From IMG/VR virus record IMGVR_UViG_3300045284_000279, positions 5,761-69,760 of that record: DNA of 64,000 nt; one strand, written 5' to 3'. A model generated the notes under the pieces. It saw only the letters and a program-made list of their open reading frames with translations. It was not told where the DNA came from and ran no database searches. Below are positions 2,211 to 42,079 of this stretch, piece by piece. Source of the stretch: a virus. Both the position numbers and the translations under genes were made by a program. Positions within the stretch are counted from its first letter, which is position 1; each line of letters opens with the position of its first letter.

Positions 2211-2786
2211 GTGAGTCGCTTGGCTCAGGACTTCCAGCGGCAGCTCGACGAGATGGCGAAGGACCGGCGCACGGTGCGTCGTAGCGAAAGAAGGAGTGGT
2301 TCAATGACCGAGGACGAGAGCGCAGGGAACGAGACGGCAGGCACCGAGATCGAACCGGATACCGAGACCAGCGGCGCCGACTACGCGAAGGCAACCTCGG
2401 AGACAGAAGGAGCAGCAGCAGACATGGCGAAGCAGCCGACGGCGAAGAAGCGCACGAAGAAGGCGTCCGGCGCGAAGGCGGCGAAGAAGGCGACCCTGAA
2501 GACGGCAAAGGCTCCGAAGGCGCCCAAGGCCGCGAAGGCACCCAAGGCCGAGAAGAAGAAGCCGTCGCACGACGGCGCAGGGTCGCGGACCGTGACGGCG
2601 CCGGCGAACCTGCCCGCCGCGGGATCGCTCAAGGTCGTCGGAGTCGAGCCCTACGGGTCGCGCTACGTCCGCGTCAACTTCGAGGACGAGAAGAGCGTGA
2701 TGTTCCTGCCCGTCAACCTCAGCCCGAGCGACACTATCGCGATGCGCGACAAGATGGTGAAGTTCCTGAGCGATCGTCTGTCGTGA
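2211..2786 (+). CDS. protein with histone H1-like Lys/Ala/Pro-rich segment
   Basis: GTG after AGGAGG; acidic N-part then AKKRTKKASGAKAAKK...KAPKAPKAAKAPKAEKKK; alternative starts at 2304 and 2424. Confidence 0.55.
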   Translation: MSRLAQDFQRQLDEMAKDRRTVRRSERRSGSMTEDESAGNETAGTEIEPDTETSGADYAKATSETEGAAADMAKQPTAKKRTKKASGAKAAKKATLKTAKAPKAPKAAKAPKAEKKKPSHDGAGSRTVTAPANLPAAGSLKVVGVEPYGSRYVRVNFEDEKSVMFLPVNLSPSDTIAMRDKMVKFLSDRLS

Positions 2787-3217
2787 CGACTAAGGCAGGT
2801 CAACCCGGCGCGTTGAACTTCGACGTGCCTGAGCCTGCCGAGAGCGACAAGGTCGAGCCTGTACAGGAGCAGGCTCGTCCGCTCTCGCCGCCGCAGGATG
2901 CGCCTCAAGTCGATGACGTGCCGCAGAGCGATGAGATGGATGCCGCGGCGCTTGTCTTCCTCGAAGATCCGATCGCGCGGAGACTCGCCGTCGCGTGGGT
3001 GACGTGCCGCGGCAACGAACACGAGTGGCTGGTAGCTGCAGGCCTGCCGCGCCTCGAAGCCTCGTCGCAGCGCATTGCGGCTGCGTTGAGGGCCAACCAG
3101 ATCTGTCGACCCGGCGGCGTGACGGATGCGCTCGCCCTGCGCTACATCAGGGCCGTCATCACGAAGCCCATCATGGCCGTCGCGGAGCGTGCCAACCGCG
3201 GAAAGGACAAACGATGA
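2783..3217 (+). CDS. hypothetical protein
   Basis: GTGA/ATGA overlaps with both neighbours. Confidence 0.55.
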   Translation: MTTKAGQPGALNFDVPEPAESDKVEPVQEQARPLSPPQDAPQVDDVPQSDEMDAAALVFLEDPIARRLAVAWVTCRGNEHEWLVAAGLPRLEASSQRIAAALRANQICRPGGVTDALALRYIRAVITKPIMAVAERANRGKDKR

Positions 3218-3954
3218 CGAAGAAAGCTCCTCCTCAGAGCGACGAATTCGCTCCGAAGGGGAAGGTCGAACGCGTTCCCGTCAGTAAGCTGAAGCCGCAT
3301 CCGCGCAACTACAAGATCCACCCGCAGGAGCAGATCGACCACATCGTCAAGAGCATCGCCGAGCACGGCATCTATCGCAACGTCGTCGTGGCAAAGGACT
3401 ACACGATCCTCGCCGGGCACGGCGTCGTGCAGGCGATTCAAAGCATGGGTCTGCTCGGCCCTGACTTGGTGCCGGTCTTCCGCACAGACCTCGATCCGGA
3501 GGATCCGCGCGCGCTCAAGATCCTCACCGGCGACAACGAGATCAGCCGCCTCGCGGAAGTCGACGATCGCACGTTGACGGGCGTGCTGAAAGACCTCGTC
3601 GAAGACCTCGCCGGCACGGGCTTCGACGCGCAGAGCTTGTCGGCGCTCGTGTTTGTGAGTCGTCCGATCGAGGAGGTCCGCGACAAGAACGAAGCCGCAG
3701 AGTGGGTCGGCATGCCGGCCTACGACGAAGGCTCGCAACAGCTCTTGCTTTCGATGATGTTCCGCGACCCCGATGCGCGGGCGCAGTTCGTCAAGCAGTT
3801 CGAGATCAAGATCTCGAAGCGCTCCACCAACGGCAAGGTCTGGTCGGCGTGGTGGCCGTTCGTGCCTCGCATGGCGCGGCAACAGCAGGTGCTTTTCACT
3901 GACGAGGATCTCGATGTCAAGCCAGACGCCAAGCCCGAACCCGCCGCCGTCTGA
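3214..3954 (+). CDS. ParB/Srx N-terminal domain protein
   Basis: LKPHPRNYKIH...SIAEHG...VVVAKDYTILAGHG...DNEI motif. Confidence 0.8.
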   Translation: MTKKAPPQSDEFAPKGKVERVPVSKLKPHPRNYKIHPQEQIDHIVKSIAEHGIYRNVVVAKDYTILAGHGVVQAIQSMGLLGPDLVPVFRTDLDPEDPRALKILTGDNEISRLAEVDDRTLTGVLKDLVEDLAGTGFDAQSLSALVFVSRPIEEVRDKNEAAEWVGMPAYDEGSQQLLLSMMFRDPDARAQFVKQFEIKISKRSTNGKVWSAWWPFVPRMARQQQVLFTDEDLDVKPDAKPEPAAV

Positions 3955-4846
3955 TCGACTGCGGCCGAAGTATCCCGTCTACATCCCGTCGAAGGGCCGC
4001 GCGGCCAACATGCTGACGTGCCGCGTCTTCGACAGGGGCAACGTGCCGTATCGCATCGTCGTGGAGCCGAGCCAGGTCGAGCACTATGCGCCGAAGTACG
4101 AGCACTGCCTGTTGGTCCTACCGGAAGACGGGAAAGGCCTCGTCTACTCGCGGAACTGGATCAAGCGCCACGCGACGGCGGAAGGTCACGCGCGGCACTG
4201 GCAGTTCGACGACGACATCAAGTTCATGACGCGGATGTACAACGGCCATCGTCTGCCCATCGCGGCGAGCGCGGCGCTGGCGCTGGCTGAGACGTTCGTC
4301 GATCGCTACGAGAACGTCGCGCTGGCGAGCCTCAACAGCGAATTCTTCATCCCGTCGACCTACGGCACGAAGCGGATCTCCGTGCCGCCGTTCTACCTCA
4401 ACGCGCGGTGCTACACCTGCTTCCTCGTGCTCAACTCGCTGCCGAACGAGTGGCGGCGACGCTACAACGAGGATACCGACATGACCTTGCAGGTGCTCGC
4501 CGACGGCTGGTGCACGGTCCTGTTCAACGCGTTCATGATCTCGACGCCAGAGACGATGACGGACAAGGGCGGACAGACCAGCATCTACGTCTCGGACGGT
4601 CGCCTGAAGATGGCGCGTCAGCTCGAGAGCATGTGGCCTGGCACGGTGTCGGTGATCCGCCGCCACGGCAGGCCGCAGCACATGATTCGGCACGACTGGA
4701 AGCACTTCGACACGCCGCTCAAGCGGAAGCCTGGGCTCGAGATTCCCGACGGTCCAGACGAGCACGGCATGCGGCTGAAGGCCGTCGGCGAGGTCACGCA
4801 CCCAATGCTCAAGGAGATGTTGACCGAGATGGAGAGCAAACGATGA
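3914..4846 (+). CDS. TET-associated/GREB1-like DNA glycosyltransferase (TAGT)
   Basis: KYPVYIPSKGR, RNW, HWQFDDDI (DxD), YNEDTD..LQVL..GWCT, KGG.T motifs of the phage TAGT family. Confidence 0.8.
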   Translation: MSSQTPSPNPPPSDRLRPKYPVYIPSKGRAANMLTCRVFDRGNVPYRIVVEPSQVEHYAPKYEHCLLVLPEDGKGLVYSRNWIKRHATAEGHARHWQFDDDIKFMTRMYNGHRLPIAASAALALAETFVDRYENVALASLNSEFFIPSTYGTKRISVPPFYLNARCYTCFLVLNSLPNEWRRRYNEDTDMTLQVLADGWCTVLFNAFMISTPETMTDKGGQTSIYVSDGRLKMARQLESMWPGTVSVIRRHGRPQHMIRHDWKHFDTPLKRKPGLEIPDGPDEHGMRLKAVGEVTHPMLKEMLTEMESKR

Positions 4847-5646
4847 AGGCCGTCGCCGTCGTCCCGTGGGTGACGCAACTCGAACGCGACGCCTTCTTGG
4901 GCGCGTGGGGCCTGTCGAAGTACAGCGCGCTGCCGTCGTTCCTGCACTTCCAGCAGGACAAGCACAAGGACGGCTGCGGCGCGACGAAGAACGCCGGCAT
5001 CGGTGCCGCGGTCGATGCAGGAGCCGACGTCGTCGTCGTGCTGGACGGAGACTGCTATCCGTCGGAAGAAGCGCCGACGCTCGAACACCTCATGCAGCAG
5101 CACGTCGTCGCGTTGACGCCGCAGCATGTCAAGCTGTACGATCAGGTGACGGCACCAGCCTCGCGCGGCACGCCGTACTACCACGAGAACTTCCACGTGC
5201 TTATGCCGGTCGCGGCGAGCATGGGTTTCTGGACGAACGTGCCGGACTACTGCGCCGTCAGGCAGTTGGCGCTGCAGGAGCCGATGACCTTCCGGCGCGA
5301 GACGGTCTTCGGTCGCTACTTCCCACTCTGCGGCATGAACCTCGCCTTCAGGCCTGCCGAGTGGTTTCCGTGGTGCCAGTTCATCGAGGTCGATCGCTTC
5401 GACGACATCTGGATGGGATGGCTGTTCCAGAAGGAAGCGTATCGCCGCGGCTACTGCTTCAACCTTGCAGGTCCGCTCGTGCACCACTCTCGCCAGAGCA
5501 ACGTCTGGCGAAACCTCGCGTCTGAGGCACGCTTCCTCGAAGAGACTGAGACGCTGTGGCGGAAGATCGCCTTGGCGCCTCAGACGACATACGGCGACCT
5601 GCTGCCACTGCTACCTGCCGGCACGCGAGGGTTGAAGATCCGATGA
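4843..5646 (+). CDS. GT75 / reversibly glycosylated polypeptide (UDP-arabinopyranose mutase-like)
   Basis: DGDC, RGTP, SMGFWTNVPDY, FPLCGMNLAF, RFDDIWMGW, HSRQSN..NL..E occur in the same order as plant RGP motifs DDDC, RGYP, SHGLWLNIPDY, FPMCGMNLAF, RYDDMWAGW, HSKASN..NL..E. Confidence 0.85.
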   Translation: MKAVAVVPWVTQLERDAFLGAWGLSKYSALPSFLHFQQDKHKDGCGATKNAGIGAAVDAGADVVVVLDGDCYPSEEAPTLEHLMQQHVVALTPQHVKLYDQVTAPASRGTPYYHENFHVLMPVAASMGFWTNVPDYCAVRQLALQEPMTFRRETVFGRYFPLCGMNLAFRPAEWFPWCQFIEVDRFDDIWMGWLFQKEAYRRGYCFNLAGPLVHHSRQSNVWRNLASEARFLEETETLWRKIALAPQTTYGDLLPLLPAGTRGLKIR

Positions 5647-6080
5647 AGCCTCTCGTCGTCGGCGAAGCGCCCGGTCGTCGTGGTGGCCCACCTCTCGCGG
5701 GCGACTGCGGCCAACGCCTCGCCGACTTCTACGGCGTGTCGTTGCGAGACTTCAAACGGACGTTCACGTGCGTGAACCTGCTGCGCGAGTGGCCAGGGTC
5801 CGCAGGGAAGGGATCGAGGTTCCCTCTCGCCGAGGCCAAGGTGCAGGCTGAGCGGATCGCAGCGCGACTGCCGTGGGGTCGCGTAGTGATCCTGCTCGGT
5901 CGTCGCGTGGCCTCAGCATTCGGAGTCAAGACGGACTATTTCAGGCGAGCGCGGATCGGGAAGTGCATCATGGTCTTCGTCGTGCCTCACCCGTCGCGCG
6001 TGAACAGGTGGTTCAACGACCCTGCGAACGTCGACTCGATGCGCGCGTTCATGCGAACTATGAAGCCGGTGTCGAGATGA
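5643..6080 (+). CDS. uracil-DNA glycosylase superfamily protein
   Basis: VVGEAPG (motif A), VILLGRRVA, VPHPS (motif B). Confidence 0.75.
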   Translation: MKPLVVGEAPGRRGGPPLAGDCGQRLADFYGVSLRDFKRTFTCVNLLREWPGSAGKGSRFPLAEAKVQAERIAARLPWGRVVILLGRRVASAFGVKTDYFRRARIGKCIMVFVVPHPSRVNRWFNDPANVDSMRAFMRTMKPVSR

Positions 6081-7051
6081 ACAGCGAAAACTTCAACGTC
6101 GTGTTTCCAGAGCGAAATGAGTTTGTCTCGATCGTAGAGCGAGCGCTGATGATGGCGAAGCATCCGATGAAGCCTCGCGAGCTTGCGCTGATCGTCTGGA
6201 AAGAATGGGGCGTGCAGGGAAAGTACATCGACGGCAAATACAAGAACCTCCAGAACCTCGAAGAGAGGATCAGGACTGCTGCGATATGTTCCGGCAAGTT
6301 AGGGTATGGGGGCCTCGGACGCAATTCTCAGGCGTATGTCTTCATGCGGTGGTGGTTTGCCGATGCAGGATTGTTCAACGATCAGCCTGAGCCGATCGCG
6401 ATAGAGGTGACGCGCGAGATCAGAGATTTGGCCATGCGAGACGCCGAGCGTAGAGCGCGCTTCTTGCAGGCTGGCAGTCGAGGTGTCGGCCGGCACTTGA
6501 GCGACGTAGTGTCTGGATTCATCTGCCAGTATGCCGTTCGGTGCTATATGGAAGAACGATGGCCGACGATCGTGCTTCCGCCTAGCAACGAACACGACTT
6601 CAAGCGGCCTGCTCCAGACGATCTGAGGGTCGTCAAGATATCCAAGAGGAAGCAGATCTTGGTTGACGTCACGTCGACTGCTAAGACTACAGGAGTGTTC
6701 GGACCTGTCGTAAAGGAAGTCAACGGCAGATCTGCCCACTTCCACGTGCTGACCTCTCCGGTGAGGAGCATGAGGAACGAGATCGTAAGGGTGCTCATCC
6801 ACGGATGGGTGAGCAGGGGCGAACTAGAGAAAGGCGTTTACGCCTGCGATGCGAGGAACTTCACTTCGCTCGAGGTGAGGCTCAACTGCATCGTGGCTGA
6901 CGTTGACTATCACGAGATGCGGCGTGTCGACGACCTCGCTCAAGCGCAAAGGAACGCTGAACTCGTACAGTCTGGCCGCAAGCTACCGACGCACCAGTCG
7001 AAGAAGAAAAACAAAAAGCCGACAGGTCCTCTAGCGATGATGTGGGATTGA
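6077..7051 (+). CDS. putative HTH + PD-(D/E)XK-like endonuclease
   Basis: SG...Q.AV...PDDL...LVDV.S...V.I.GW pattern resembles a degenerate restriction-endonuclease fold; visibly lower GC than flanks. Confidence 0.4.
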   Translation: MNSENFNVVFPERNEFVSIVERALMMAKHPMKPRELALIVWKEWGVQGKYIDGKYKNLQNLEERIRTAAICSGKLGYGGLGRNSQAYVFMRWWFADAGLFNDQPEPIAIEVTREIRDLAMRDAERRARFLQAGSRGVGRHLSDVVSGFICQYAVRCYMEERWPTIVLPPSNEHDFKRPAPDDLRVVKISKRKQILVDVTSTAKTTGVFGPVVKEVNGRSAHFHVLTSPVRSMRNEIVRVLIHGWVSRGELEKGVYACDARNFTSLEVRLNCIVADVDYHEMRRVDDLAQAQRNAELVQSGRKLPTHQSKKKNKKPTGPLAMMWD

Positions 7052-7052
7052 A

Positions 7053-7298
7053 ATGGGATGCTGTGCGCTTGGGACTTGTGTTTTATCGAAGGCTCTTGGA
7101 GGGCCAGGCTGCTACCTGTGTGACGTCGTCGCGAAGCTCCCGCAACCGAAGAAGCTCTCGCGCGACCTCGATGCTCTGGCTGATGCTGCTGAAGCCGAAG
7201 CTGCTGCCAAGCTGAAAGCAGAAGACGGTCAGCAACCGAAGGAAAAGAAGCCGCGCAAGCAAGCGCGCAAGGCGCAGACGATGGACAGGTTGATATGA
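7053..7298 (+). CDS. hypothetical protein
   Basis: fills the gap, ATGA overlap with next gene, Cys-rich N-terminus. Confidence 0.45.
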   Translation: MGCCALGTCVLSKALGGPGCYLCDVVAKLPQPKKLSRDLDALADAAEAEAAAKLKAEDGQQPKEKKPRKQARKAQTMDRLI

Positions 7299-8011
7299 GC
7301 GATCGGCCTCGCGACGGCAAGCGGTTCGTGTGGACGACGTGGATCACGGGTCTGTTGGCAGCCGACAATCACTGCGCGTGGGCGACGTGGTATCGCGCGC
7401 ACTACTTCTTCGCCAAGCGTCCAGAAAGCCCTGAGCGCGAAGCGAACCTCGCGCGTTGGCAGAACGACCACGTGCAGGCCGTGCGCGCGAAGGCCGACGA
7501 GCTCGAGAAAGAGGGCTGGACCGTCACGGTAGAAGACCAGAACAAGTTCTTCGTCCGCGGCGAGACGGCGACGCTGTCGGGTTGTGCCGACCTCGTCGCC
7601 GTGCGCGACGTAGGCCTGCCGAAGTACGAAGCCTTCGAGCTGACGGCTTCGCCTGCCGTCACGGCGACCCGCCACGCGATGATCGTCGACTGCAAAACTG
7701 GCGAACGCAGGAACGGCGACTGGTGGCAGGTTGCGATCTACTTGGCGTATGCGCCTGCGGCGCTGCGCGTGCTCAACGGCGTCGACGTGCTGACGGGTCG
7801 CGTGTCGTATCGCGACGGGAACCTCGATCTGTCCAGCGACGTGCTGACCGACGACGTGCGACGGCGCATCGGTGCCGAGGTCCGCTCTGCGGCCGGAGCG
7901 ACGCCTCCACCTCGCACGCCGAGCCCACGCGAGTGTGCATACTGCAACATCTTGGCCTGTCCCGATCGCATCGATGAACCCATAAGCGAATCAGCGACGG
8001 AGGACTTTTGA
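7295..8011 (+). CDS. PD-(D/E)XK RecB/Cas4-like exonuclease
   Basis: SGCADLV...IVDCKTG...QVAIY plus N-terminal C and C-terminal C..C....C (Fe-S type). Confidence 0.75.
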   Translation: MSDRPRDGKRFVWTTWITGLLAADNHCAWATWYRAHYFFAKRPESPEREANLARWQNDHVQAVRAKADELEKEGWTVTVEDQNKFFVRGETATLSGCADLVAVRDVGLPKYEAFELTASPAVTATRHAMIVDCKTGERRNGDWWQVAIYLAYAPAALRVLNGVDVLTGRVSYRDGNLDLSSDVLTDDVRRRIGAEVRSAAGATPPPRTPSPRECAYCNILACPDRIDEPISESATEDF

Positions 8012-20392: not shown

Positions 20393-20576
20393 GACGACGG
20401 TTGAGGTCACATACCTCCACGTGCCGTGCCTGCGGCCGCTGCGGATGGTGTCTCGCGTCGTCATAAGCGAACCCATGGACGAGAGCTGGCCGCAGAATTT
20501 CAAGGCCTCGATGCCGTGGTGCGATTCCTGCCGCCGCTTTGCGACGGTGCCTGAAGTCAAGGAACGCCTCAAGTAG
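20385..20576 (+). CDS. small hypothetical protein
   Basis: TTG start after GGAG; H.PC...WCDSC. Confidence 0.4.
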   Translation: MPETTVEVTYLHVPCLRPLRMVSRVVISEPMDESWPQNFKASMPWCDSCRRFATVPEVKERLK

Positions 20577-20577
20577 C

Positions 20578-22164
20578 ATGCCTAGGCGTCCTGCGGCGGC
20601 GGCCGATCCGATGCGGCGCTTCCTCGCGGCGATGGCAGACGAGGTCGACGGCTCCGTGCCGCTCGAAGACGGTCCACCGATCTGGGAACCGCTGCCGCCG
20701 CAACCGAAGCGCGGCATCTTCCATCCAGACGGCTCAGGCCGCATCGTCTCGCCGCAGGAAGCGGCGTACGACTCACTCGCTGACGAGCTGTTCTTCGGCG
20801 GAGCAGGCGGTGGCGGGAAGACGGACCTGCTGCTCGGCCTCTCGCTGACGAAGCATCGTCGATCGATCATCTTCCGTCGAGAGTTTGCGCAGTTCCGCGG
20901 CGCAGAGGGCATGATCGAGCGCTCGCGTCAGATCATCGGCCTGCGCGGAAGGCTGGCCGAAGGGAAGGTCTGGCGAGACCTGCCTGGAGCCCGCGCCTTG
21001 GAATTCGGCGGCGTCGAGCACGACCACGACAAGGACAAGTACAAGGGCCGACCGCACGACCTGAAAGGCTTCGACGAACTACCGGAATTCACCGAGGGCG
21101 TCTATCGGTTCCTGATCGCGTGGCTGCGCACGTCGGTGATAGGACAGCGCACGCGCGTCGTCGGCACTGGGAATCCACCGACGACGATCGAAGGTCAGTG
21201 GGTGATCAAGTATTGGGGTCCGTGGTTGGACCCTGCGCACCCGAAGCCTGCGAAGGCCGGCGAGCTTCGCTGGTATGCGGCCATCAACGGCAAGGACGTC
21301 GAGCTCGAGTCGGGCGATCCGTTTACGATCGAGGAAGAGGGGAAGCCTCGCGTCGTGCGACCGCGTTCTCGCACGTTCATTCCTGCTGCCGTCGAAGACA
21401 ACCCCTATTACGTTCGCACTGGATACATGGACGTACTCGACAGCCTGCCTGAGCCGCTGCGCTCTCAGATGCGCTTCGGGAACTTCCAAGCCTCGTCGCC
21501 TGACGATCAGTGGCAGGTCATTCCGACTGCGTGGGTGTTGCGGGCGCAGGAACGCTGGCGCGAGGACGGGCGCGGAAAGACCTTGACCGGCGTCGGTGTT
21601 GACCCGAGTCGCGGCGGCAAGGCGGAATTCGCCATCGGGCTCTGCTACGATGCGTGGGTGGATCTGAAGGTCCATCAGGCAACCGAAGCTCCGGATGGCT
21701 TCGCAGGCGCGAACCTCGTCTTCTCGGCCGTACAGGCCGCGGGCGGAGACTTGACGACGCCGGTCCAGATCGACATCATAGGAACCGCAGGGTCATCGGT
21801 CTACGATCAGGCGCGGGCCCTGAAGCTGTCCGTGGTCGACATGAACGGCTCAGAACGCAGCGAAGCGCGAGACCGCAGTGGGAAGCTCGGCTTCTTCAAC
21901 CAGCGCTCTGAATGGCACTGGCGGCTCCGAGAGATCCTCGACCCGAAGTCCGGGCAGGACATCGCGCTGCCGCCGGACCCTCAGCTGCGGAGCGACCTCG
22001 TGGCGCCACGGTGGAAGCCGACCCCGCGCGGCATCCAGGTTGAATCGAAGGACGACATCGTGGCGCGCCTCGGGCGATCTCCAGATCGTGGTGAGGCGGT
22101 GATCTACGCCGTCGTGCGGAAGCACGGCAAGGCCTCGTCGGTGTTGACCAGTCTGACGTGGTGA
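20578..22164 (+). CDS. terL: terminase large subunit
   Basis: FGGAGGGGKT Walker A, GFDE Walker B, TGNP, DNP, GVDPSRGG and SPDRGEA nuclease motifs. Confidence 0.92.
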   Translation: MPRRPAAAADPMRRFLAAMADEVDGSVPLEDGPPIWEPLPPQPKRGIFHPDGSGRIVSPQEAAYDSLADELFFGGAGGGGKTDLLLGLSLTKHRRSIIFRREFAQFRGAEGMIERSRQIIGLRGRLAEGKVWRDLPGARALEFGGVEHDHDKDKYKGRPHDLKGFDELPEFTEGVYRFLIAWLRTSVIGQRTRVVGTGNPPTTIEGQWVIKYWGPWLDPAHPKPAKAGELRWYAAINGKDVELESGDPFTIEEEGKPRVVRPRSRTFIPAAVEDNPYYVRTGYMDVLDSLPEPLRSQMRFGNFQASSPDDQWQVIPTAWVLRAQERWREDGRGKTLTGVGVDPSRGGKAEFAIGLCYDAWVDLKVHQATEAPDGFAGANLVFSAVQAAGGDLTTPVQIDIIGTAGSSVYDQARALKLSVVDMNGSERSEARDRSGKLGFFNQRSEWHWRLREILDPKSGQDIALPPDPQLRSDLVAPRWKPTPRGIQVESKDDIVARLGRSPDRGEAVIYAVVRKHGKASSVLTSLTW

Positions 22165-22171
22165 GGTTGTA

Positions 22172-22285
22172 ATGCGTACGTTCCTGTGGATGGTGTTTGC
22201 GGCGGCGGTCGTCTTCGCGTTCATTGCGTGGTTGCGATCAGGTGTGTTTTCGTTGCCTCGACGAAGGCGCGCTCGTCAAGCTTGA
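22172..22285 (+). CDS. small membrane protein
   Basis: GAGG RBS; MRTFLWMVFAAAVVFAFIAW then basic tail; not in the ORF track. Confidence 0.35.
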   Translation: MRTFLWMVFAAAVVFAFIAWLRSGVFSLPRRRRARQA

Positions 22286-22375
22286 AGGGAAGCTCTGCCC
22301 ATTTCACGGCATCAACATCCACCAGACGCTGGAAGCAAAGCAGGCTCCACGACGCGAGACGAGAGGCTTCAATCG

Positions 22376-23110
22376 ATGAACAGCATGAGCATCGAGAGTA
22401 AGACGCGCCTGAGCTTTTGGTTCCCGCTCATCAAGGCTGCAGGCCTGCCTGTTCCCAAGACGCAGATCGTTGGGATCTCGCCTGACGAAGACCGCAGTAT
22501 GGTGCTTCTGCTTGACGGCAACCTTCCGCCATGTTGGGAAGATCTGATCAATCGCATAGAGGTCTCAGCTGAAGCCTTCGGGTATCCGTTCTTCCTGCGG
22601 ACTGACTTCACCAGCAACAAGCACGATTGGGATGATTCGTGCTGCGTGAGGAATCCTGCGAAGCTCTCACATCACGTGGAAAACCTTATAGCATTCAGCG
22701 AAATGGCTGATATGTTCGGTGGCGTTCCTGTAGGCGCCTTCGTCCTGCGCGAGATGCTGCCGACGGTGCCAGCGTTCTACGCCTTCAATGGCATGCCCAT
22801 CGTGCGTGAATTCCGCGTCTTCGTGCGTGACGGTCTCGTCGAACACATACAGCCGTACTGGCCGCCTGAGGCCATCGAGCGCAGTATCATCGAACCGAGC
22901 CTCAAGTCATGGCGCACGGCACTCCAGATGATGTCGGTGCTCGACGACGAGACCAAGCAGGTCTTGACTCGCCTCGCGCTGCAAGCGAATGCGGCCGTAC
23001 CTGGGTATTGGTCGGTAGACTTCCTCGACGTCTCTGGATGTTGGGTGCTTACCGACATGGCCGAAGGCGACCTGTCGTTCAAGTGTAACCCTCAAGCAGC
23101 AGGAGTATGA
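22376..23110 (+). CDS. ATP-grasp fold protein (R2K/Cdc123-like clade)
   Basis: P.PKT, PFFLRTD..S.KH.W, LRE, EFRVFV..G, YW, SVDF, W.L.D motifs. Confidence 0.65.
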   Translation: MNSMSIESKTRLSFWFPLIKAAGLPVPKTQIVGISPDEDRSMVLLLDGNLPPCWEDLINRIEVSAEAFGYPFFLRTDFTSNKHDWDDSCCVRNPAKLSHHVENLIAFSEMADMFGGVPVGAFVLREMLPTVPAFYAFNGMPIVREFRVFVRDGLVEHIQPYWPPEAIERSIIEPSLKSWRTALQMMSVLDDETKQVLTRLALQANAAVPGYWSVDFLDVSGCWVLTDMAEGDLSFKCNPQAAGV

Positions 23111-23313
23111 CGATGGACACCACTACGCGTGGCACGATCTCGGCTGAGTATGACTACGAGAAAGAAGCCAAGGAGCACCTCGAAGCAGCCAAGATCTCAG
23201 CGAAGGGTAACGAGGTCGGATGGGTGATCGCAAAGTCTGCGGCAGCCATCGTTGCGTCGCTGAGCGACATCGCGTCCGAGTTGCGTAAGATGCGCCGTAG
23301 TAAAGTCGATTGA
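23107..23313 (+). CDS. hypothetical protein
   Basis: AGGAG RBS, ATGA overlap. Confidence 0.45.
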   Translation: MTMDTTTRGTISAEYDYEKEAKEHLEAAKISAKGNEVGWVIAKSAAAIVASLSDIASELRKMRRSKVD

Positions 23314-23322
23314 GCCCTTGCC

Positions 23323-23523
23323 GTGCTCCGCACCCATTCTGAAAACGATCCGGTCGTGCTCATCGAGAAACGCAGGGGGAATCGTCACGAGGTGACGGCC
23401 CGCTTCGGGAAGAACTACCGCGCGAGCGTGACGCGCTTCTCTCGACGTGAGGCCGTCATTTCGCTTGAGCAGCGCGTCATTGACGACGTGCGTCGCTTGT
23501 TCCGAGAGGAAGTTCTGCGGTGA
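23323..23523 (+). CDS. hypothetical protein
   Basis: GTGA overlap with next gene. Confidence 0.4.
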   Translation: MLRTHSENDPVVLIEKRRGNRHEVTARFGKNYRASVTRFSRREAVISLEQRVIDDVRRLFREEVLR

Positions 23524-24032
23524 TCCGCAGGCCTCTGGCGCCCAGCGGAGTTGTCCCAGTCGAGGTCAAGCCTCGACCTGCGCCTGCTGTTAGGCCGAAG
23601 CCTCTAGCACCCATACCAGCGCTGCGAGCGCGTGTTCGCGCTGAAGTCGGAAGTGCTAGCGAAGCCTTCGGTCAAGTGACGGCGGCGGTCGTCGATGCAA
23701 CGTCGATGACGAATCAGTTCTCGTCGGCTGTTGCTGGCCTTCGCAGAGTCGTCGCGCAGAGCTTTCGCTGTGATCTGTGCGACGACGACGGCATCATCTC
23801 GCGGATCGACGTCGGCTTGTCGAGCGACAAGTCGGTCTTCACGGCGAAGGTGTCAGTCGTCCAGTTTGCGGACAAGCAGCGCTGGCCGAACATGGCTCAC
23901 GTCTATGCCTCACCCGATCACGTGTTGCATTGTCCGATCGTGCTGCCGTCAGCTGATACGTCAGGCATGACGACCATCACGATTCCGATTCCGATGTCCA
24001 TGCGCTTCAGCGTTCAAGGGCCAGGAATTTGA
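23520..24032 (+). CDS. hypothetical protein
   Basis: overlaps both neighbours. Confidence 0.45.
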   Translation: MIRRPLAPSGVVPVEVKPRPAPAVRPKPLAPIPALRARVRAEVGSASEAFGQVTAAVVDATSMTNQFSSAVAGLRRVVAQSFRCDLCDDDGIISRIDVGLSSDKSVFTAKVSVVQFADKQRWPNMAHVYASPDHVLHCPIVLPSADTSGMTTITIPIPMSMRFSVQGPGI

Positions 24033-37381: not shown

Positions 37382-37821
37382 TGGCCATCACCTTCGACAT
37401 CACCGAAGATCACGGATGGTTCGTCGGCGACGACAAGGACTTCGTCTTCGAGATCCTCGCCGACGACGGTATCGATCCGTGGCTCGACGAAGAACAGACG
37501 ATCCCGAATCCTGCGAAGGGCGTCGTCAACGTCAGCACCTGGACGCTCGCGTGGACGGTGCGGAAGAAGGACGACTCGCCGGATCCGCCGCTCGTGCAGA
37601 AGACGACGACGAGCGGCATCACGATCGAAGGCACCTACAACTCGTCGCGTGCCTCGAACACGCAGCGCGTGCGCGTCTCAGTTGCCGACACGGACACCGA
37701 CGCCGTCACCGCAGGGAACTGGCGCCACGCGCTGAAGCGCATGACCGACGGCGCTGAGCAGGTTATCTCACGCGGCGACGCGCTCCTGCAGCGCGCAACG
37801 ACGCCGGCCTCACTGTCATGA
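37381..37821 (+). CDS. BppU-N-like Ig-fold virion protein
   Basis: GDD..F.F.I, V.V...T....VRK, V.V.VA..DT.....G...H.L. Confidence 0.55.
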   Translation: MAITFDITEDHGWFVGDDKDFVFEILADDGIDPWLDEEQTIPNPAKGVVNVSTWTLAWTVRKKDDSPDPPLVQKTTTSGITIEGTYNSSRASNTQRVRVSVADTDTDAVTAGNWRHALKRMTDGAEQVISRGDALLQRATTPASLS

Positions 37822-38384
37822 GCATCACCATCGTCGCCACGCCCGGCGCCGCCGACGCGAACTCGTACGCGACTCTCGACGAAGCCGCGTCGTACTTCGA
37901 GGTCCGCCTGCACGACGAAGCGTGGGAATCGGCGGCAACCGAAGACCAGAAGGCAGCGCTCGTGTGGGCGACGCGTTTGATCGACGGCTTTGATCCGTGT
38001 CCGGACCTGCCGTCGACGCTCGGGCCGTGGACCGGCACGGTGTCGTCCGCCACGCAGGCCTTGGCATGGCCGCGCACCGGCATGACGGATTCGAACGGGC
38101 GCGCTATCGCGAGCACCGTCATTCCGAACCAGTTGAAGTGGGCTGAATTCGAGCAGGCGCTGGCGCTCCTGAAGGCCGACCGCACGCTCGAGAGTGCCGC
38201 GGGAGCGCAGGGCATCACGCGCCTGAAGGCCGGCTCAGTCGAGCTCGGCTTCAAGGACGAGATCACGATCCAATCCATCGCGCCGGGCGTGCGTGCGCTC
38301 CTGCCTCGCTCGTGGGTGCGGCAGTGCTCCGGCATCACCTCGTATCTCTTCGACGTGGTCGGTCCGTCGAAGCCGTGCGGATAG
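37818..38384 (+). CDS. head-tail adaptor (DnaT-like annotated family)
   Basis: ANSYATLDEA..YF, AL..AT..ID, QALAWPRTG, IP..LK.A..E.AL. Confidence 0.8.
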   Translation: MSITIVATPGAADANSYATLDEAASYFEVRLHDEAWESAATEDQKAALVWATRLIDGFDPCPDLPSTLGPWTGTVSSATQALAWPRTGMTDSNGRAIASTVIPNQLKWAEFEQALALLKADRTLESAAGAQGITRLKAGSVELGFKDEITIQSIAPGVRALLPRSWVRQCSGITSYLFDVVGPSKPCG

Positions 38385-38385
38385 C

Positions 38386-38742
38386 ATGGCGCTCGATGAC
38401 CTCATTCGTGGCGGCATCGCGCTGGCGAAGGATCTGACGGCCGACCTGCAAGCGACCGTCAAGCATCGCCGCTACAAGGGCCAGCTGCACACCGGCGAGC
38501 GGGACTTCTATCCGGTCGTCCTGCGGCAGGCCATCGTCGACGCGAAGCAGGAGAAGGTTCGCGCAGCCGACGGGCGCGAGGTCGTCAGCAGGATGTACGT
38601 GCTGTTCCTCGAACCCGTCGACGTCACGTTGAAGGACGAGATCACCTTGCCGGACGGCACGAAGCCTGAGCTCATCGCGCTGGCAGGGTTCGTCGACAAA
38701 GGATCTGGGAATCCCTATTACCGAGAGATCTGGACGGCATGA
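38386..38742 (+). CDS. head closure/stopper protein
   Basis: G.EVVS...V.F, D.ITLPDG; position after adaptor. Confidence 0.7.
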   Translation: MALDDLIRGGIALAKDLTADLQATVKHRRYKGQLHTGERDFYPVVLRQAIVDAKQEKVRAADGREVVSRMYVLFLEPVDVTLKDEITLPDGTKPELIALAGFVDKGSGNPYYREIWTA

Positions 38743-39815
38743 TCCGCGTGGCACTCGCTGAGCCCTACCTGATCGGCAATGAACGCCGATACGTCCTCGA
38801 TGCGATGGACAAGGGCGAGCTGACGTGGCGCGGAGCCTATGTCGAACGCTTCGAGCACGCCTTTGCGAAGTACGTCGGCGCGCGCTACGCCATCGCCTGC
38901 TGTAACGGCACGGCCGCCCTGCACCTCGCCCTGCGTGCTGCAGGAGTCGAGCGCGGCATGCGCGTCGCCATGCCGACGCTGACCTACGTGGCGACGGCGA
39001 ACGCCGTCCGCTACTGTGAGGCTGTGCCAGTCTTCTGCGACGTCGATCCCGAGACGTGGCAGATGAGGCTGGACTACCGCCGACACGACCACGTCGACGC
39101 CATCCTGCCGGTGCACCTCTACGGCATTCCTGCGACGTCTGTCTCGCGATCGCCTGGCCTCGTCGTAGAAGATGCGGCCGAAGCCTTCGGCGCGCTGTTC
39201 GACGGCGTGACGCACGTCGGCATGATGGGGGCAGCCGGGTCGTTCTCGTTCTACGCGAACAAGATTCTGACCTGCGGCGAAGGCGGCATCGTCGTGACGA
39301 ACGACGAGCAGGTCGCCGCGAAGGCTCGCCTGCTGCGCGGGCAGGCGCAAAGTCCCGATCGGCTGTACTGGCACGTCGACGTCGGCTTCAACTACCGCAT
39401 GACGAACCTGCAAGCGGCCGTTGCGCTCGGACAGATCGAAAAGGCCGGCATCCACCTTTCCGCGCGCCTCGGGATCTTCGACCACTACCGCTTTCGCCTG
39501 CGTGACGAATCCGTGTCGTGGCCGCGCACGGAGCACGTCACCGACATTCAGGCGCCGTGGATGTTCGTCGTGCAGCTGCCGCCGTACGTCAATCGTGACA
39601 GCACGATCGAGAAGCTCGCAGGTCGAGGCGTAGAGACGCGGCCGGCCTTCGCCTGCCTGCACACGATGCCGCCCTACGCAACTGGCGAACAGCTGCCTCA
39701 CGCGCAGGCGATCTCCGCGAGTGCGCTGTGCCTGCCGACGCACGGAGGTCTGACGTATGCCGAGGTCGACTACGTCTGCGACAGCCTGCTCGAGATCATC
39801 AGGAGGGCAGCGTGA
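38739..39815 (+). CDS. DegT/DnrJ/EryC1/StrS sugar aminotransferase (perosamine synthase-like)
   Basis: NGTAALHLAL, PVHLYG, EDAAEA.GA, SFYANKILTCGEGG (PLP Lys), GFNYRMTNLQAA. Confidence 0.93.
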   Translation: MIRVALAEPYLIGNERRYVLDAMDKGELTWRGAYVERFEHAFAKYVGARYAIACCNGTAALHLALRAAGVERGMRVAMPTLTYVATANAVRYCEAVPVFCDVDPETWQMRLDYRRHDHVDAILPVHLYGIPATSVSRSPGLVVEDAAEAFGALFDGVTHVGMMGAAGSFSFYANKILTCGEGGIVVTNDEQVAAKARLLRGQAQSPDRLYWHVDVGFNYRMTNLQAAVALGQIEKAGIHLSARLGIFDHYRFRLRDESVSWPRTEHVTDIQAPWMFVVQLPPYVNRDSTIEKLAGRGVETRPAFACLHTMPPYATGEQLPHAQAISASALCLPTHGGLTYAEVDYVCDSLLEIIRRAA

Positions 39816-40537
39816 GCTACGTCGGCGCTGAAGCGACCGTCAGAGGCTTCAACGCGAAGTGCTTCTTCGGCGCAGGCGAGAAGACGCCCGGCTGGTATCT
39901 GTACGGCGGCTTCCGCGGCCAGATCCACGAGGTGCCGCTCGCAGGTCCATTCAATGACGAAGCGACCTGCCTGCGCGCGGCCGTCTGGATGGAAGCGCAG
40001 GCGCACCCGACGTGGTCTGAGGTCTATCAGACGGTGAAGCTGATACCTGCCGCCGACGGGGCGTTCCAGATCGAGCAGGTGCCGGAGATCTACGACCCAG
40101 TCATCGTCCTGCGCGCTCAGGCGATTCGCATCGCCCGCACTGCCCGCGTCGACAGCTTCGTGAAGCTCGAAGGCGGCGAAGGCCTGTTCATCGGCGAGCA
40201 CGTGCACGTCGCGTCGTTCTGCCACCTTGGCATCGGCGGTGGCCTGACGCTGCTCGAAGACGGATCGTCGTTCGGCTCTGGATCGAAGGTGCTGAGCGGC
40301 AGCAATACGCACGGCCTCGGGCATGGCTGCTCGGCTATCGTGCCGGACGCACAGTTCTCGCGGTCCTTCGTCCACGTCAAGAAGAACGCCACGTTGTTCG
40401 TCAATGCTGTTGTCCTGCCGGGCGTAACCGTCGGCGAGAATGCGGTCGTCGCCGCAGGTGCCGTCGTAACGAAGGACGTGCCGGACGGCGAGATCTGGGG
40501 CGGGATTCCTGCGCGCAAGATCGGAGTCGTCCTGTGA
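39812..40537 (+). CDS. hexapeptide-repeat (LbH) sugar acetyltransferase with extra N-terminal domain
   Basis: NAVVLPGVTVGENAVVAAGAVVTKDVP...WGGIPAR. Confidence 0.88.
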   Translation: MSYVGAEATVRGFNAKCFFGAGEKTPGWYLYGGFRGQIHEVPLAGPFNDEATCLRAAVWMEAQAHPTWSEVYQTVKLIPAADGAFQIEQVPEIYDPVIVLRAQAIRIARTARVDSFVKLEGGEGLFIGEHVHVASFCHLGIGGGLTLLEDGSSFGSGSKVLSGSNTHGLGHGCSAIVPDAQFSRSFVHVKKNATLFVNAVVLPGVTVGENAVVAAGAVVTKDVPDGEIWGGIPARKIGVVL

Positions 40538-41169
40538 GCGTGCGCTGCTTCATGATCGAACCGATCGGGCGTGCGCGCCTGACCCTGCGCCGCTATGCCG
40601 ACGGCCCGTGTCCGAACATGCCGGGACAGCACGGCTATCACAACGCCGAGGCGCCGCTGTTCGACGTCGACGAGCGAAAAGACCCTACCGGTTCGCCCGG
40701 CGATTGGGTCTACAAGCACGACGGTCCGCAGCGTCTGGAAGACGTGCCTCCTGAGTATGCGTTTCCGACGCACTGCGCCTGCGGCTTCGCGTTTCCAGAG
40801 AAGGGCGGACAGATCTTCTCGGTCCACCTCTATCGTCGCGTCGACAACGGCGAGGTCCGCACGCACCGCGAGTGGGTGAAGGTGCCTGGGGCGATGTGGA
40901 ACGCCGAGTGGCTGGCGCGCTATCCGCACTACTGCGGGCCTGACGGCCTCGCGCTGACGGTCGTCTGTCCGAACGGACAGGAGTGGTCGATCGACGGACG
41001 CTGCAGCAACTGTACGATGCCGGAAGACATGACGCACAAGTGTTGGGTGCGTCACGGGGTGCCTCCGCTCATCACAGTTGACAAGGACGGCGTGACGTGT
41101 GCCGCCGGCGCAGGGTCCATTCAGGCAGGTGACTATCACGGGTTCCTGCGGAACGGAGAATTCACGTGA
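40534..41169 (+). CDS. Cys/His-rich protein with DUF6527-like C-terminus
   Basis: PGAMW.A.W, CP.G.EW.ID...SNC, H.CW.R.G.PP.IT, SI...YHGFL.NG. Confidence 0.55.
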   Translation: MSVRCFMIEPIGRARLTLRRYADGPCPNMPGQHGYHNAEAPLFDVDERKDPTGSPGDWVYKHDGPQRLEDVPPEYAFPTHCACGFAFPEKGGQIFSVHLYRRVDNGEVRTHREWVKVPGAMWNAEWLARYPHYCGPDGLALTVVCPNGQEWSIDGRCSNCTMPEDMTHKCWVRHGVPPLITVDKDGVTCAAGAGSIQAGDYHGFLRNGEFT

Positions 41170-41405
41170 CCGGCCTGCGCCTTGCCGACGGCCAGCCTGC
41201 TGAGATTCCTGCGGCGGGATCGTACTGGCTACACGGGACGACGTGGTATGCGATCACGCCGAACGGCATGCTGGCCTCGCTGGCAAACCACACCGTCGAA
41301 GTCCACGACGACGGCACCATCTCGGTTAGCCCGTCGATCAGGTGCCGCAGTCCACTGCGTGAGTGGCATGGCTTTCTCGAACGTGGCACGTGGAGGGACG
41401 CGTGA
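41166..41405 (+). CDS. DUF6527-like small protein
   Basis: H.V..H.DGTISVSPSI...WHGFL..G.W. Confidence 0.6.
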   Translation: MTGLRLADGQPAEIPAAGSYWLHGTTWYAITPNGMLASLANHTVEVHDDGTISVSPSIRCRSPLREWHGFLERGTWRDA

Positions 41406-42079
41406 AGGTCGTCGTCGGATCGGCGTTCAGGAACAGCGAAGGTCGCGTCGACCGCTACTTCGAGCAGGTCGCGGCCTTCGCGCGCTACGGGAAGGAGCAC
41501 GCCTTCGACGTGCGCGTCGCGGCCATCGAAGGTGATTCGACCGACGGCACGCGTGCTCGCCTGCAGCAGCCTCGCGACCTCGACGTCGACGTGGTCATTC
41601 ACGAACACGGCGGACCCGTCTACGGGTCGACGGAAGACCCTGCGCGCATGGCGCAGCTGACCGGCGTCGGCAACGCCATCTTCAACAGTGTGCGCGAGAG
41701 CGACGACGTGCTCGTCTACGTCGAGAGCGACCTCATGTGGGACGCTGCGACGATCCACTCGCTCATGCTGTCGGTGATCTGCGGAGCCTGCGACGTAGTT
41801 GCGCCGCTCGTCTTTGCTGGCCCTCACTTCTACGACATCTACGCCTTCAGGAAGAACGGCGTGCGCTTCAGCCCGTTCTATCCGTATCACGCGGACCTGA
41901 ACGGCGAGCAACTCGTCGACGTGGATTCTGCCGGTAGTTGCCTCGTGATGTCGGCGCAGGTCGCGCGCGAGGTGAGGATTCCTGTCGGTGGAGTCCTCGT
42001 CGAGTGGTGCAACTCTGCGCGCGCGGCTGGCTATCGCGTCTGTGCGCGGCTCGACCTCGGAATCCAGCATGGTATCTGA
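41402..42079 (+). CDS. GT-A fold glycosyltransferase (GT2/Anp1/CAP59-like)
   Basis: FRN, EGDSTDGT, R..L..V.N, VESD, FYDIYAFR, VDSAGSC. Confidence 0.7.
   Translation: MKVVVGSAFRNSEGRVDRYFEQVAAFARYGKEHAFDVRVAAIEGDSTDGTRARLQQPRDLDVDVVIHEHGGPVYGSTEDPARMAQLTGVGNAIFNSVRESDDVLVYVESDLMWDAATIHSLMLSVICGACDVVAPLVFAGPHFYDIYAFRKNGVRFSPFYPYHADLNGEQLVDVDSAGSCLVMSAQVAREVRIPVGGVLVEWCNSARAAGYRVCARLDLGIQHGI

Follow-up and report, generated by a model that had tools for sequence, protein, structure and literature searches.

To our knowledge, every known route by which a sugar is placed on DNA begins with the formation of a hydroxylated or hydroxymethylated pyrimidine. The acceptors of known TAGT-type glycosyltransferases are hydroxyl groups, namely those of 5hmC, of a sugar, or of Ser/Thr in GREB1, and we know of no such hydroxyl in canonical DNA except the 3'- and 5'-OH at its ends. 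Publications already describe furanosyl sugars on phage DNA and a Glf, encoded by a phage, that produces UDP-Galf (PMC13326640, in part); a route unlike anything known is not supported. Polyarabinofuranosyl 5-hydroxycytosine was described in DLP3 and RB69, and a phage UDP-galactopyranose mutase in Pootjesviridae (PMC13326640, in part). In these phages, a thymidylate-synthase-like enzyme makes 5-hydroxy-dCMP before replication and the mutase is a flavin Glf; there, as may be the case for the cassette reported here, a chain can be assembled by more than one transferase (PMC13326640, in part). In contrast, no such synthase was found for the present cassette, which combines a putative GT75-type mutase with a TAGT and a ParB-like partner. 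PMC13326640 uses none of the terms GT75, 'reversibly glycosylated', TAGT and ParB, and a literature search found no paper linking GT75 or RGP to phages.

A TAGT gene is also located in a phage DNA-modification cluster in the TET-TAGT-methyltransferase cassettes (Nonlabens/Persicivirga phage P12024L gp26-gp28; C5-MT/TET/GT clusters, PMC8256090). There, a PF12851 dioxygenase and a methyltransferase create the 5hmC acceptor, whereas neither is present in the cassette described here, and the two TAGT proteins are only 25% identical. In the ParB-dependent phage thymine dioxygenases (5mYOX with ParB), the ParB gene adjoins a gene for an enzyme that modifies DNA after replication, glycosyltransferases and terminases accompany the cassettes, and the ParB-like partner has an N-terminal and a C-terminal domain with no obvious DNA-binding domain, as here (PMC13229309, in part). 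The partner in the present locus is a glycosyltransferase, not a dioxygenase, and no 5mYOX was detectable in this or related records.

The window analysed is a stretch of 64,000 nt, to which all coordinates refer. It is part of a record of 69,760 bp from an uncultured phage that is 93% complete, so that about 5 kb may be missing. Sequence reading and translation confirmed the four overlapping, coupled plus-strand genes predicted at 3214-6080 (Table 1), and Pfam and PHROG profile matches agreed with the predicted identities of the products (ParB, TAGT, GT75/RGP, UDG fold). The ParB and TAGT genes overlap by 41 nt, and position 3914 is the sole in-frame ATG, GTG or TTG ahead of the TAGT domain. 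ATGA overlaps are present at the TAGT/GT75 and GT75/UDG junctions. They also tie the block to a gene on its 5' side (2783-3217) and to the one that follows it (6077-7051), which overlaps the UDG-like gene; such overlaps are thus common in this phage operon and do not by themselves mark out a system. The gene at 6077-7051 had no match in Pfam or PHROG, comparison to the Atlas gave weak leads only (HARE-HTH and PD-(D/E)XK clusters, score 0.82-0.83), and its membership of the system is uncertain. This gene lies in a stretch of low G+C: the content of 6001-8000 (0.595) is the second lowest among the 2-kb bins of the window, after 22001-24000 (0.591).

Table 1. Genes of the cassette and the adjoining downstream gene (window coordinates)
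Feature	Position	Strand	Product length
ParB-like	3214..3954	+	246 aa
TAGT-family GT-A glycosyltransferase	3914..4846	+	310 aa
GT75/RGP-family protein	4843..5646	+	267 aa
Small UDG-superfamily protein	5643..6080	+	145 aa
Fifth translationally coupled gene, no family match	6077..7051	+	324 aa

The TAGT is the proposed transferase that places the sugar on the acceptor. As predicted, the profile search identified it as a member of this family, with a match to the full length of PF20691 (1-205/205; 133.6 bits, cut-off 27.5; E 1.1e-38); phrog_842, a family that carries the name of the second-glucose transferase of T-even phages, matched with E 2.8e-46. Residues D99-D100-D101, D187 and G219 are invariant across 21 relatives, and the DDD at 99-101 together with D187 forms the acidic metal motif. 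At about 33% identity, its nearest relatives from cultured phages belong to Aeromonas and Vibrio phages and are annotated as beta-glucosyl-HMC-alpha-glucosyltransferase.

The product of the first gene matched PHROG ParB families (E 1e-26 to 1e-15), and the Pfam ParB_N score of 20.7 bits was below the cut-off of 26.3. It consists of an N-terminal ParB/Srx-type domain and a short C-terminal domain, and no HTH family or recognisable DNA-binding HTH was found in the Pfam search. The CTP-binding arginine box of canonical chromosomal ParB, which we take to be GERRxR, is absent; the aligned segment reads AGHGVVQA, of which G-H-G is common among relatives. The ParB-like gene lies directly 5' of the TAGT gene in the 23 related loci that share the order ParB-TAGT-GT75 with the window, and also in the loci L040, L044, L047, L049, L051, L052, L058, L060 and L061. 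Prediction of the ParB-TAGT complex gave a fold-test score of 0.77, compared with 0.00 for the best control; among solved complexes 58 of 80 attained this mark, and among mismatched pairs 2 of 110, counts that are only a rough calibration because alignments made in this analysis were used. The runs shared at least 36% of contacts with a partner pLDDT of at least 62, and ParB-like residues 156-176 and 217-233 touched the TAGT in the predicted complex. The fold test supports binding of the two proteins, and the ParB-like protein is proposed to be a partner or activator of the TAGT.

The assignment of the third gene product to GT75 was substantiated by profile and structure searches. PF03214 (RGP) matched above its cut-off (31.6 bits, cut-off 23.8; E 1.3e-7). 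The AF2 model (pLDDT 96) was compared with known structures using Foldseek; the top seven matches were rice UAM2 (8cid, best match, E 2.5e-10) and MtdL entries (7xpu/7xpt/7yua among the best), with E-values of 2.5e-10 to 1.4e-9 and TM scores by query of 0.60-0.66, followed by a generic GT-A protein at E 5.5e-5. A family profile built from 40 relatives matched MtdL (2e-16) and rice UAM (3.9e-16) in the PDB. The predicted GT75 motifs are present in order, including the Arg of RGxP, and are all invariant in the 40 aligned relatives: D68-x-D70, R108-G-x-P111, FPLCGMNLAF, R185-F-D-D188-IW and H215-x-R217. D135 is likewise invariant. The FPLCGMNLAF and RFDDIW blocks resemble motifs of the plant proteins.

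The plant UAM/RGP proteins (OsUAM, AtRGP) and bacterial MtdL, a GDP-L-galactose/GDP-L-fucose mutase, share the GT-A fold and the core domain with the phage protein. The DXD of MtdL (D109-D111) corresponds to D68/D70, and Arg159, the equivalent of the reversibly glycosylated Arg158 of OsUAM1, to R108, with R108-G109-T-P111 aligned to PRGFPF. Asp195, Arg257, Asp260, His287 and Arg289 correspond to D135, R185, D188, H215 and R217, respectively. All these MtdL residues are essential; the DxD is the metal motif, H287 binds Mn, R257 contacts the beta-phosphate and D260 is the proposed general base (PMC9937993, in part). The DxD, glycosylated Arg, beta-phosphate Arg, proposed general-base Asp and Mn-binding His are thus all kept in the phage protein. 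Some plant GT75 members are inactive, among them AtRGP5, which has lost the equivalents of phage H215 and R185 (PMC9937993, in part). The phage protein differs from UAM2 and MtdL in being about 90 to 110 residues shorter (267 aa vs 344-376 aa), in an identity of 16-18% over the structural alignment with the solved structures, and in being phage-encoded beside ParB and TAGT. It may also differ at MtdL Asp87, the third sugar-site Asp, where D87N and D87S abolish activity (PMC9937993, in part): in a region that aligns weakly, the main phage clade apparently has G46 (profile alignment) or C45 (with a one-residue shift) at this position, and the distant viral GT75 members have Asp. By sequence and modelled fold, the phage protein is a genuine member of GT75 and carries the catalytic residues common to both characterised mutase branches, and it is proposed to act as a Mn-dependent, arginine-mediated NDP-sugar pyranose-to-furanose mutase.

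Relatives of the GT75 protein were found 1,445 times in uncultured phages at E <= 0.001. The survey of TAGT-GT75 co-occurrence suggested by the original prediction revealed a strong association, which included ParB. TAGT was present in 26 of 37 records holding a GT75 relative and adjoined GT75 in 26 of 29 close relatives with sequence upstream of GT75; it was absent from the other three of these informative relatives and from four of four distant viral ones. One TAGT-less GT75 relative was paired with a weakly matching GT2 instead. ParB-TAGT cassettes lacking GT75 made up 5 of the 15 close TAGT loci, and minimal forms were ParB-TAGT-TAGT-TerS (L051) and ParB-TAGT-gene-TerL (L044). Terminase genes were located directly 3' of the cassette in all four relatives whose downstream gene was scanned, and the gene clusters to which these terminases belong also follow GT75 in many other loci. 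Radical SAM genes are located within the cassettes of L004 and L061, and sulfotransferase genes occur in L008, L047 and, by membership of the cluster scanned in L008, L011. The genes beside ParB differ between relatives. The cassette appears to be mobile and modular, with a core of a ParB-like gene and one or more TAGT genes to which sugar-nucleotide tailoring genes are added.

The UDG-like protein, which the original prediction had counted among the parts of the system, is better regarded as an accessory. PF03167 (26.1 bits, cut-off 24.3) and phrog_12275 (E 3e-22) matched, and motif A (GEAPG) and motif B (HPS), which we take to be those of UDG family 4, are present. The gene adjoins the cassette in only 4 of 44 different records (the relatives found plus the record of the window): in the window and in L002 and L010 it lies 3' of GT75, whereas in L040 it lies directly 3' of TAGT. 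Among these three relatives, the Glu of motif A is replaced by Gln in L040 and L002, and the copy in L010 has a frame change and an in-frame stop.

Gene content of the relatives also bears on the origin of the sugar donor. The cassette of L047 reads ParB-TAGT-sulfotransferase-GLF, the GLF being a flavin UDP-galactopyranose mutase (E 3e-51) in place of GT75 in a record without GT75; among 49 records GLF was confined to this one, and the 40 of them with GT75 all lacked it. In L030, a GalE gene is located upstream of ParB (E 1.5e-114 to solved UDP-glucose 4-epimerases), in L058 a 4-epimerase-class SDR gene is located directly 3' of GT75, and in L061 a UDP-glucuronate decarboxylase gene directly 3' of TAGT. 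Glf in place of GT75 and GalE next to the cassette were each seen once. The Glf that stands in for GT75 and the 4-epimerases adjoining the cassette (L030, L058) support GT75 as supplier of a furanose donor. That the phage makes its own furanose donor, as originally predicted, is backed by this comparison; the predicted transfer to DNA did not receive such backing.

The original prediction had noted that no TET/JBP or hydroxymethylase is visible in the window, and this holds for the whole 69,760-bp record, in which the search for a base hydroxymethylase was likewise negative. The Tet_JBP profile search gave no match in 38 and 50 related records (0/88), and recovered the TET of phage P12024L as positive control at E 2.8e-29. 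The thymidylate-synthase family PF00303 was found in 1 of 38 records, solely a 436-kb jumbo phage, while the controls responded in 10 of 14 genomes; no cassette-bearing record encoded a thymidylate-synthase-like enzyme. Direct scanning of 63 ORFs of this genome against Pfam revealed no acceptor-making enzyme. As no base-priming enzyme was found, DNA can be named only as the presumed acceptor.

The following mechanism was given an even chance of being correct. The GT75 protein would be a metal-dependent mutase converting an NDP-sugar, most likely UDP-galactose or UDP-L-arabinose, from pyranose to furanose via a sugar-arginine intermediate on R108, and the TAGT would use the furanose donor. The C-terminal domain of the ParB-like protein would bind the TAGT and recruit or activate it on double-stranded phage DNA after replication, in parallel to the ParB partner of the phage thymine dioxygenases. 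The UDG-fold protein would be an occasional accessory. A link to DNA is suggested by the replication genes around the cassette in this phage, by the terminase genes behind it in relatives and by the documented ParB partners of phage DNA dioxygenases (PMC13229309, in part). Points against this mechanism are the lack of a recognised acceptor-making enzyme in the records searched, the hydroxyl acceptors of known TAGT-type enzymes, the apparent Cys or Gly at the Asp87 position, the inactivity of some plant GT75 members, the AGHGVV segment of the ParB-like protein, the single occurrences of Glf and GalE, the GT75 relatives that lack TAGT and the incompleteness of the record.

A protein may be the target instead of DNA, whether a host protein, a protein of packaging or of the virion, or the ParB-like partner, and the predicted ParB-TAGT interface would then be an enzyme-substrate or adaptor contact. 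This was considered rather unlikely. It is consistent with the lack of a base-priming enzyme in the records searched and with the TAGT-family domain of human GREB1, which glycosylates a protein (PMC7968844, in part). A cultured Vibrio/Shewanella phage has a TAGT-containing gene between its portal and head-morphogenesis genes, and none of the 23 genes annotated in this 12.8-kb stretch is named ParB; the cassette abuts terminase and head genes in most mapped relatives, and the structural module of the present phage contains a further, distinct sugar cluster. However, its cassette is located in the replication module, surrounded by ERF, clamp, DnaB and SSB genes, the nearest named relatives of the TAGT are DNA glucosyltransferases of T-even-like phages, and DNA-modifying enzymes with ParB-fold partners have been described (PMC13229309, in part).

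A further reading, held to be rather improbable, is that canonical double-stranded phage DNA bearing no modification is the direct substrate of the ParB-TAGT complex, which would glycosylate it after replication with the GT75-made furanose donor, i.e. without prior base oxidation or hydroxymethylation, and that the product is further tailored in relatives by sulfation or radical SAM chemistry. Exocyclic nitrogens and DNA ends are possible sites for such a reaction.

A priming enzyme may also have escaped recognition, for instance a dioxygenase that has diverged strongly, an enzyme of the radical SAM type or some other oxidase, encoded in the missing 7% or so of the record or among its unnamed ORFs, and the cassette would then follow the ordinary route of hydroxylated base plus sugar. 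A large number of the ORFs around the cassette are without a family assignment, radical SAM genes occur inside it in the two relatives named above, and thousands of contigs without Pfam TET/JBP annotation were found with phage-specific 5mYOX profiles (PMC13229309, in part). On the other hand, a phmmer search with the P12024L TET found nothing (best E = 2), the minimal cassettes L051 and L044 leave no room nearby, and the genes adjacent to ParB are not conserved, so that no unknown gene travels with the cassette; this explanation was judged quite unlikely.

It is distinctly improbable that the GT75 protein is itself a transferase that puts the first sugar onto an acceptor nitrogen by arginine-type chemistry, or a second sugar as the original prediction had allowed, with the TAGT extending the chain like a T6-type enzyme: the autoglycosylation of an arginine nitrogen by GT75 proteins (PMC9937993, in part), the single copy of GT75 compared with one to four TAGT copies per record, the name of phrog_842 and the apparently non-conserved Asp87 equivalent in its weakly aligning region would fit, but the ParB-TAGT cassettes without GT75 weaken this alternative, and the replacement of GT75 by a bona fide flavin mutase in L047, the adjoining pyranose-making 4-epimerases and the mutase nature of both characterised family branches argue against it.

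Sugar modification of phage DNA helps to determine whether a phage is open to attack by particular restriction, CRISPR and type IV defence systems, and it is a source of enzymes for DNA labelling. The ParB-TAGT cassette is modular like a natural-product gene cluster, has no known priming step and is widespread in uncultured phages. If DNA is the target, the acceptor chemistry would be new or a priming enzyme would have escaped recognition, and the GT75 mutase would have its first role in a virus. The GT75 protein would also be a compact, flavin-free source of NDP-furanoses.

The window corresponds to bases 5761-69760 of a linear IMG/VR virus record of 69,760 bp with an estimated completeness of 93%. 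Its G+C content is about 64%, and the + strand carries nearly all genes. Four overlapping, translationally coupled genes had been described at 3214-6080, and this arrangement was confirmed by sequence reading, translation, and Pfam and PHROG matches.

Genes of the cassette and its downstream neighbours
Feature	Position	Strand	Basis
ParB-like	3214-3954	+	sequence reading of 2700-6400, translation
TAGT	3914-4846	+	sequence reading of 2700-6400, translation
GT75-like	4843-5646	+	sequence reading of 2700-6400, translation
UDG-like	5643-6080	+	sequence reading of 2700-6400, translation
Unnamed gene, 324 aa	6077-7051	+	sequence reading of 2700-6400, translation

Of the four junctions from the ParB-like gene to the unnamed gene, the first is an overlap of 41 nt and the rest are ATGA overlaps. 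The gene at 2783-3217, upstream of ParB, is coupled likewise; coupling is thus a general habit of the operon and no marker of a system. The TAGT product, a family reportedly defined by Iyer et al. in 2013, matched PF20691 over the full length of the profile with 133.6 bits (Pfam), in line with its original assignment. Pfam scores were 31.6 bits for RGP/GT75 (cut-off 23.8) and 26.1 bits for UDG (cut-off 24.3). The ParB-like protein was recognized by PHROGs (E 1e-26), its Pfam score being under the cut-off. The cassette is surrounded by replication and recombination genes, with ERF, exonuclease and pol III beta clamp upstream and Holliday-junction resolvase, DnaB and SSB downstream (Pfam/PHROG). 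Neither a DNA polymerase nor nucleotide-metabolism genes were found among the 63 ORFs of this genome scanned against Pfam, and blastn of 3214-6080 against deposited phages gave no match.

Several other genes of the window were recorded. The unnamed gene lies in the 2-kb stretch with the second-lowest G+C of the window and is coupled to the UDG-like gene. It matched no family, with weak Atlas leads to HARE-HTH and PD-(D/E)XK nuclease clusters; its setting would fit a candidate nuclease sparing modified DNA. An R2K-clade ATP-grasp protein (22376-23110; PF14243, 27.0 bits, barely over the cut-off) is encoded between the portal gene and a 541-aa gene (20539-22164) for which no Pfam family was matched. 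Among the virion genes, a DnaT-like ssDNA-binding protein (37818-38384; PF20557, E 1e-23) is located directly upstream of a second sugar cluster. This cluster (38739-44531, within the structural module) comprises a DegT-type aminotransferase (E 9e-87), a hexapeptide-repeat acyltransferase and a weakly matched GT1-type glycosyltransferase, with unnamed genes interspersed, and may serve virion decoration or the supply of sugar donors.

The GT75 family comprised 1,445 proteins at E <= 0.001 in a word-indexed search and 501 cluster representatives in an exhaustive search. The matches fall into a phage type of about 260 aa and a group of 320-400 aa. Members of the latter are 30-40% identical, and one carries the source annotation 'reversibly glycosylated polypeptide/UDP-arabinopyranose mutase'. 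In an alignment of 40 relatives, four distant viral ones included, D68, D70, R108-G109, P111, D135, R185, D188, H215, R217 and S219 are invariant. The AlphaFold model (pLDDT 96, pTM 0.92) gave rice UAM2 (8cid) and MtdL entries as its best seven PDB matches, one MtdL entry being entitled 'metal-dependent mutase ... arginine residue covalently mediated interconversion'; generic GT-A enzymes followed at 4-5 orders of magnitude weaker. The family profile searched against the PDB likewise matched MtdL (2e-16) and UAM (3.9e-16). The reading of PDB entry 7XPR as a guanidino-N-glycosyltransferase was ruled out, the PDB titles naming the mutase MtdL.

Passages of PMC9937993 list the DXD motif, His287, Arg159, Arg257, Asp87, Asp195 and Asp260 as essential in MtdL, where His287 binds Mn, Arg257 contacts the beta-phosphate, Asp260 is the proposed general base, and Arg159 is the autoglycosylated arginine, equivalent to Arg158 of OsUAM1. 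By alignment, these residues correspond to D68/D70 (DXD), H215, R108 (Arg159), R185 (Arg257), D135 (Asp195) and D188 (Asp260) of the phage protein, the position of Asp87 being uncertain (G46 or C45). Seven of the eight essential residues are thus kept, and the GT75 motifs originally read from the sequence proved correct. The same passages state that the inactive AtRGP5 has lost the equivalents of H215 and R185 (PMC9937993).

Searching viral contigs with the GT75 protein yielded 37 loci, 33 close (50% identity or more) and 4 distant. Four of the close loci start at GT75 itself and are uninformative upstream, leaving 29. TAGT adjoins GT75 in 26 of these, immediately upstream in 25, which upholds the proposed co-occurrence; it is absent from the other three and from all four distant viral loci. 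The ParB-like gene precedes TAGT in 23 of the 26, the other three contigs being cut inside TAGT. Some GT75 records hold 2 to 4 TAGT copies. When the search was started from TAGT, 15 close loci were obtained, 10 with and 5 without GT75, and all 15 with a ParB-like gene upstream of TAGT. ParB and TAGT therefore form the tightest pair, to which GT75 is often added. Small and large terminase genes lie directly downstream of the cassette in all four relatives in which a downstream gene was scanned, and in many other loci GT75 is followed by genes of the same clusters.

Tandem TAGT genes were also observed. In one relative (L009, 1579-7379), a single GT75 gene is surrounded by three genes of ParB type and four TAGT paralogues in tandem, a set that suggests a multi-sugar chain. 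Another (L062, 6505-9395) has a tandem run of four TAGT-like genes whose identity to the window TAGT is 25-30%; neither ParB nor GT75 was detected there by tblastn. The cultured Vibrio phage 1.076.O (L144) encodes a 389-aa TAGT-containing protein (5686-6855) between portal and head-morphogenesis genes, with no gene annotated as ParB within the 12.8-kb stretch shown; as a cultured phage it may lend itself to studies of TAGT function in the putative absence of a dioxygenase. No cultured carrier of GT75 was found by tblastn against 50,697 phage records, the single match being a 595-kb uncultured phage (31% identity). Species-representative genomes held only 10 GT75 loci. Three are close (56-61% identical) and lie on short or MAG contigs from Planctomycetota, Gemmatimonadales and an unnamed bacterium; seven are distant (25-38%), six on MAG contigs and one on a 5-Mb MAG chromosome.

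The cassette add-ons are sugar-nucleotide and sugar-tailoring enzymes.

Add-on genes at related loci
Enzyme	Locus and place	Remark
Sulfotransferase	L008, L011, after GT75; L047, after TAGT	L011 by shared cluster, only L008 scanned
GalE	L030, upstream of ParB	E 1.5e-114
4-epimerase-class SDR	L058, immediately after GT75	
UDP-glucuronate decarboxylase	L061, immediately after TAGT	E 6e-81
Radical SAM genes	L004, L061	
Sulfatase	L007	
PAPS-reductase-like gene	L004	

Most informative is L047, where GT75 is absent and the gene order is ParB-TAGT-sulfotransferase-GLF, GLF being the flavin UDP-galactopyranose mutase (E 3e-51). GLF turned up in a single record out of 49, and the 40 GT75-bearing records in that set all lacked it. 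Use of two unrelated mutases by one type of cassette, together with 4-epimerases next to GT75, is expected if GT75 supplies a furanose donor. The mutase function first proposed gained support from this replacement and from the 4-epimerases beside the cassette; judged from sequence, GT75 is predicted to be a donor-supplying mutase, well supported by comparison, and would provide a donor such as UDP-Galf or UDP-L-Araf. The GLF and 4-epimerase cases are each single, so the sugar named is a guess. Alternatively, GT75 could place the first sugar on a guanidine-like nitrogen of a base; this was considered less probable because cassettes without GT75 exist and GLF takes its place in one. A variant at L061 (1299-4931) has the order ParB, BtrN-like radical SAM (E 8e-12), unnamed gene, TAGT and decarboxylase, with no mutase in the cassette, an arrangement suggestive of a donor of the xylose type and of radical tailoring.

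The ParB-like protein combines an N-domain of ParB type with a short C-terminal domain, with no DNA-binding domain detectable by Pfam/PHROG or alignment. The same architecture is described for ParB activators of phage thymine dioxygenases in passages of PMC13229309. Complex prediction for TAGT and ParB gave 0.77, whereas none of three controls exceeded 0.00. Among solved complexes, 58 of 80 score this high, and among mismatched pairs 2 of 110; these rates apply only approximately, since the prediction was run on alignments built for this analysis. Contacts agreed by at least 36% between runs, with partner pLDDT of at least 62, and joined ParB C-terminal residues 156-176 and 217-233 to TAGT 104-128, 149-162 and the C-terminal extension 277-303. 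The model supports, but does not prove, ParB-TAGT binding. ParB and TAGT subtypes co-vary in all 11 loci common to both alignments, which may reflect shared descent and was given no weight.

The UDG-fold gene, initially counted as part of the system, follows GT75 in three records and directly follows TAGT in a fourth. With so few occurrences, its link to the cassette is loose and it does not belong to the core; it was assigned no firm role. In two relatives Gln replaces the motif A Glu, and the protein had no meaningful match among PDB sequences. In one copy (L010, 6790-7628) the reading frame shifts about 30 residues in and contains an in-frame stop codon, indicating either a pseudogene or assembly errors.

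The original prediction saw no TET/JBP or hydroxymethylase in the window, and profile and Pfam searches agreed. The Tet_JBP profile matched nothing in 38 GT75 records or in 50 further TAGT-relative records; the same search recovered the positive control, the dioxygenase of phage P12024L, which carries the textbook trio dioxygenase-TAGT-methyltransferase, at E 2.8e-29. The P12024L TET as a local phmmer query gave chance matches only. Direct Pfam scans of 63 ORFs, a set excluding two giant tail genes (46568-50254, 50251-54708), the small ORFs within gaps and several others no longer than 164 aa, revealed no dioxygenase, methyltransferase or hydroxymethylase, so the suggested search of the rest of the genome returned no base hydroxymethylase. 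No dioxygenase was found in ORFs around the cassette (Pfam and PHROG) or among 10 genes upstream of ParB in relatives, and thymidylate-synthase relatives occurred in one record only, a jumbo phage. Genes adjoining ParB vary from phage to phage, so the cassette has no unnamed gene as a constant companion. Consequently, either the cassette modifies a pre-existing acceptor (canonical DNA, a DNA end or protein), or priming depends on an enzyme of another kind encoded elsewhere; that DNA is the acceptor is plausible, though not established.

Furanosyl DNA itself is already known, as passages of PMC13326640 describe alpha- and beta-D-arabinofuranose chains on 5-hydroxycytosine in DLP3 and RB69 DNA and a Glf of Pootjesviridae proposed to make UDP-Galf. 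A ParB partner of a DNA-modifying enzyme is likewise reported in PMC13229309. Cassettes of the same kind may already be among the contig lists of both papers; literature text searches found no published link between GT75 or RGP and phages. What is new is the viral GT75-type mutase, its pairing with ParB-TAGT, the modular sugar-tailoring genes and the absent priming enzyme.
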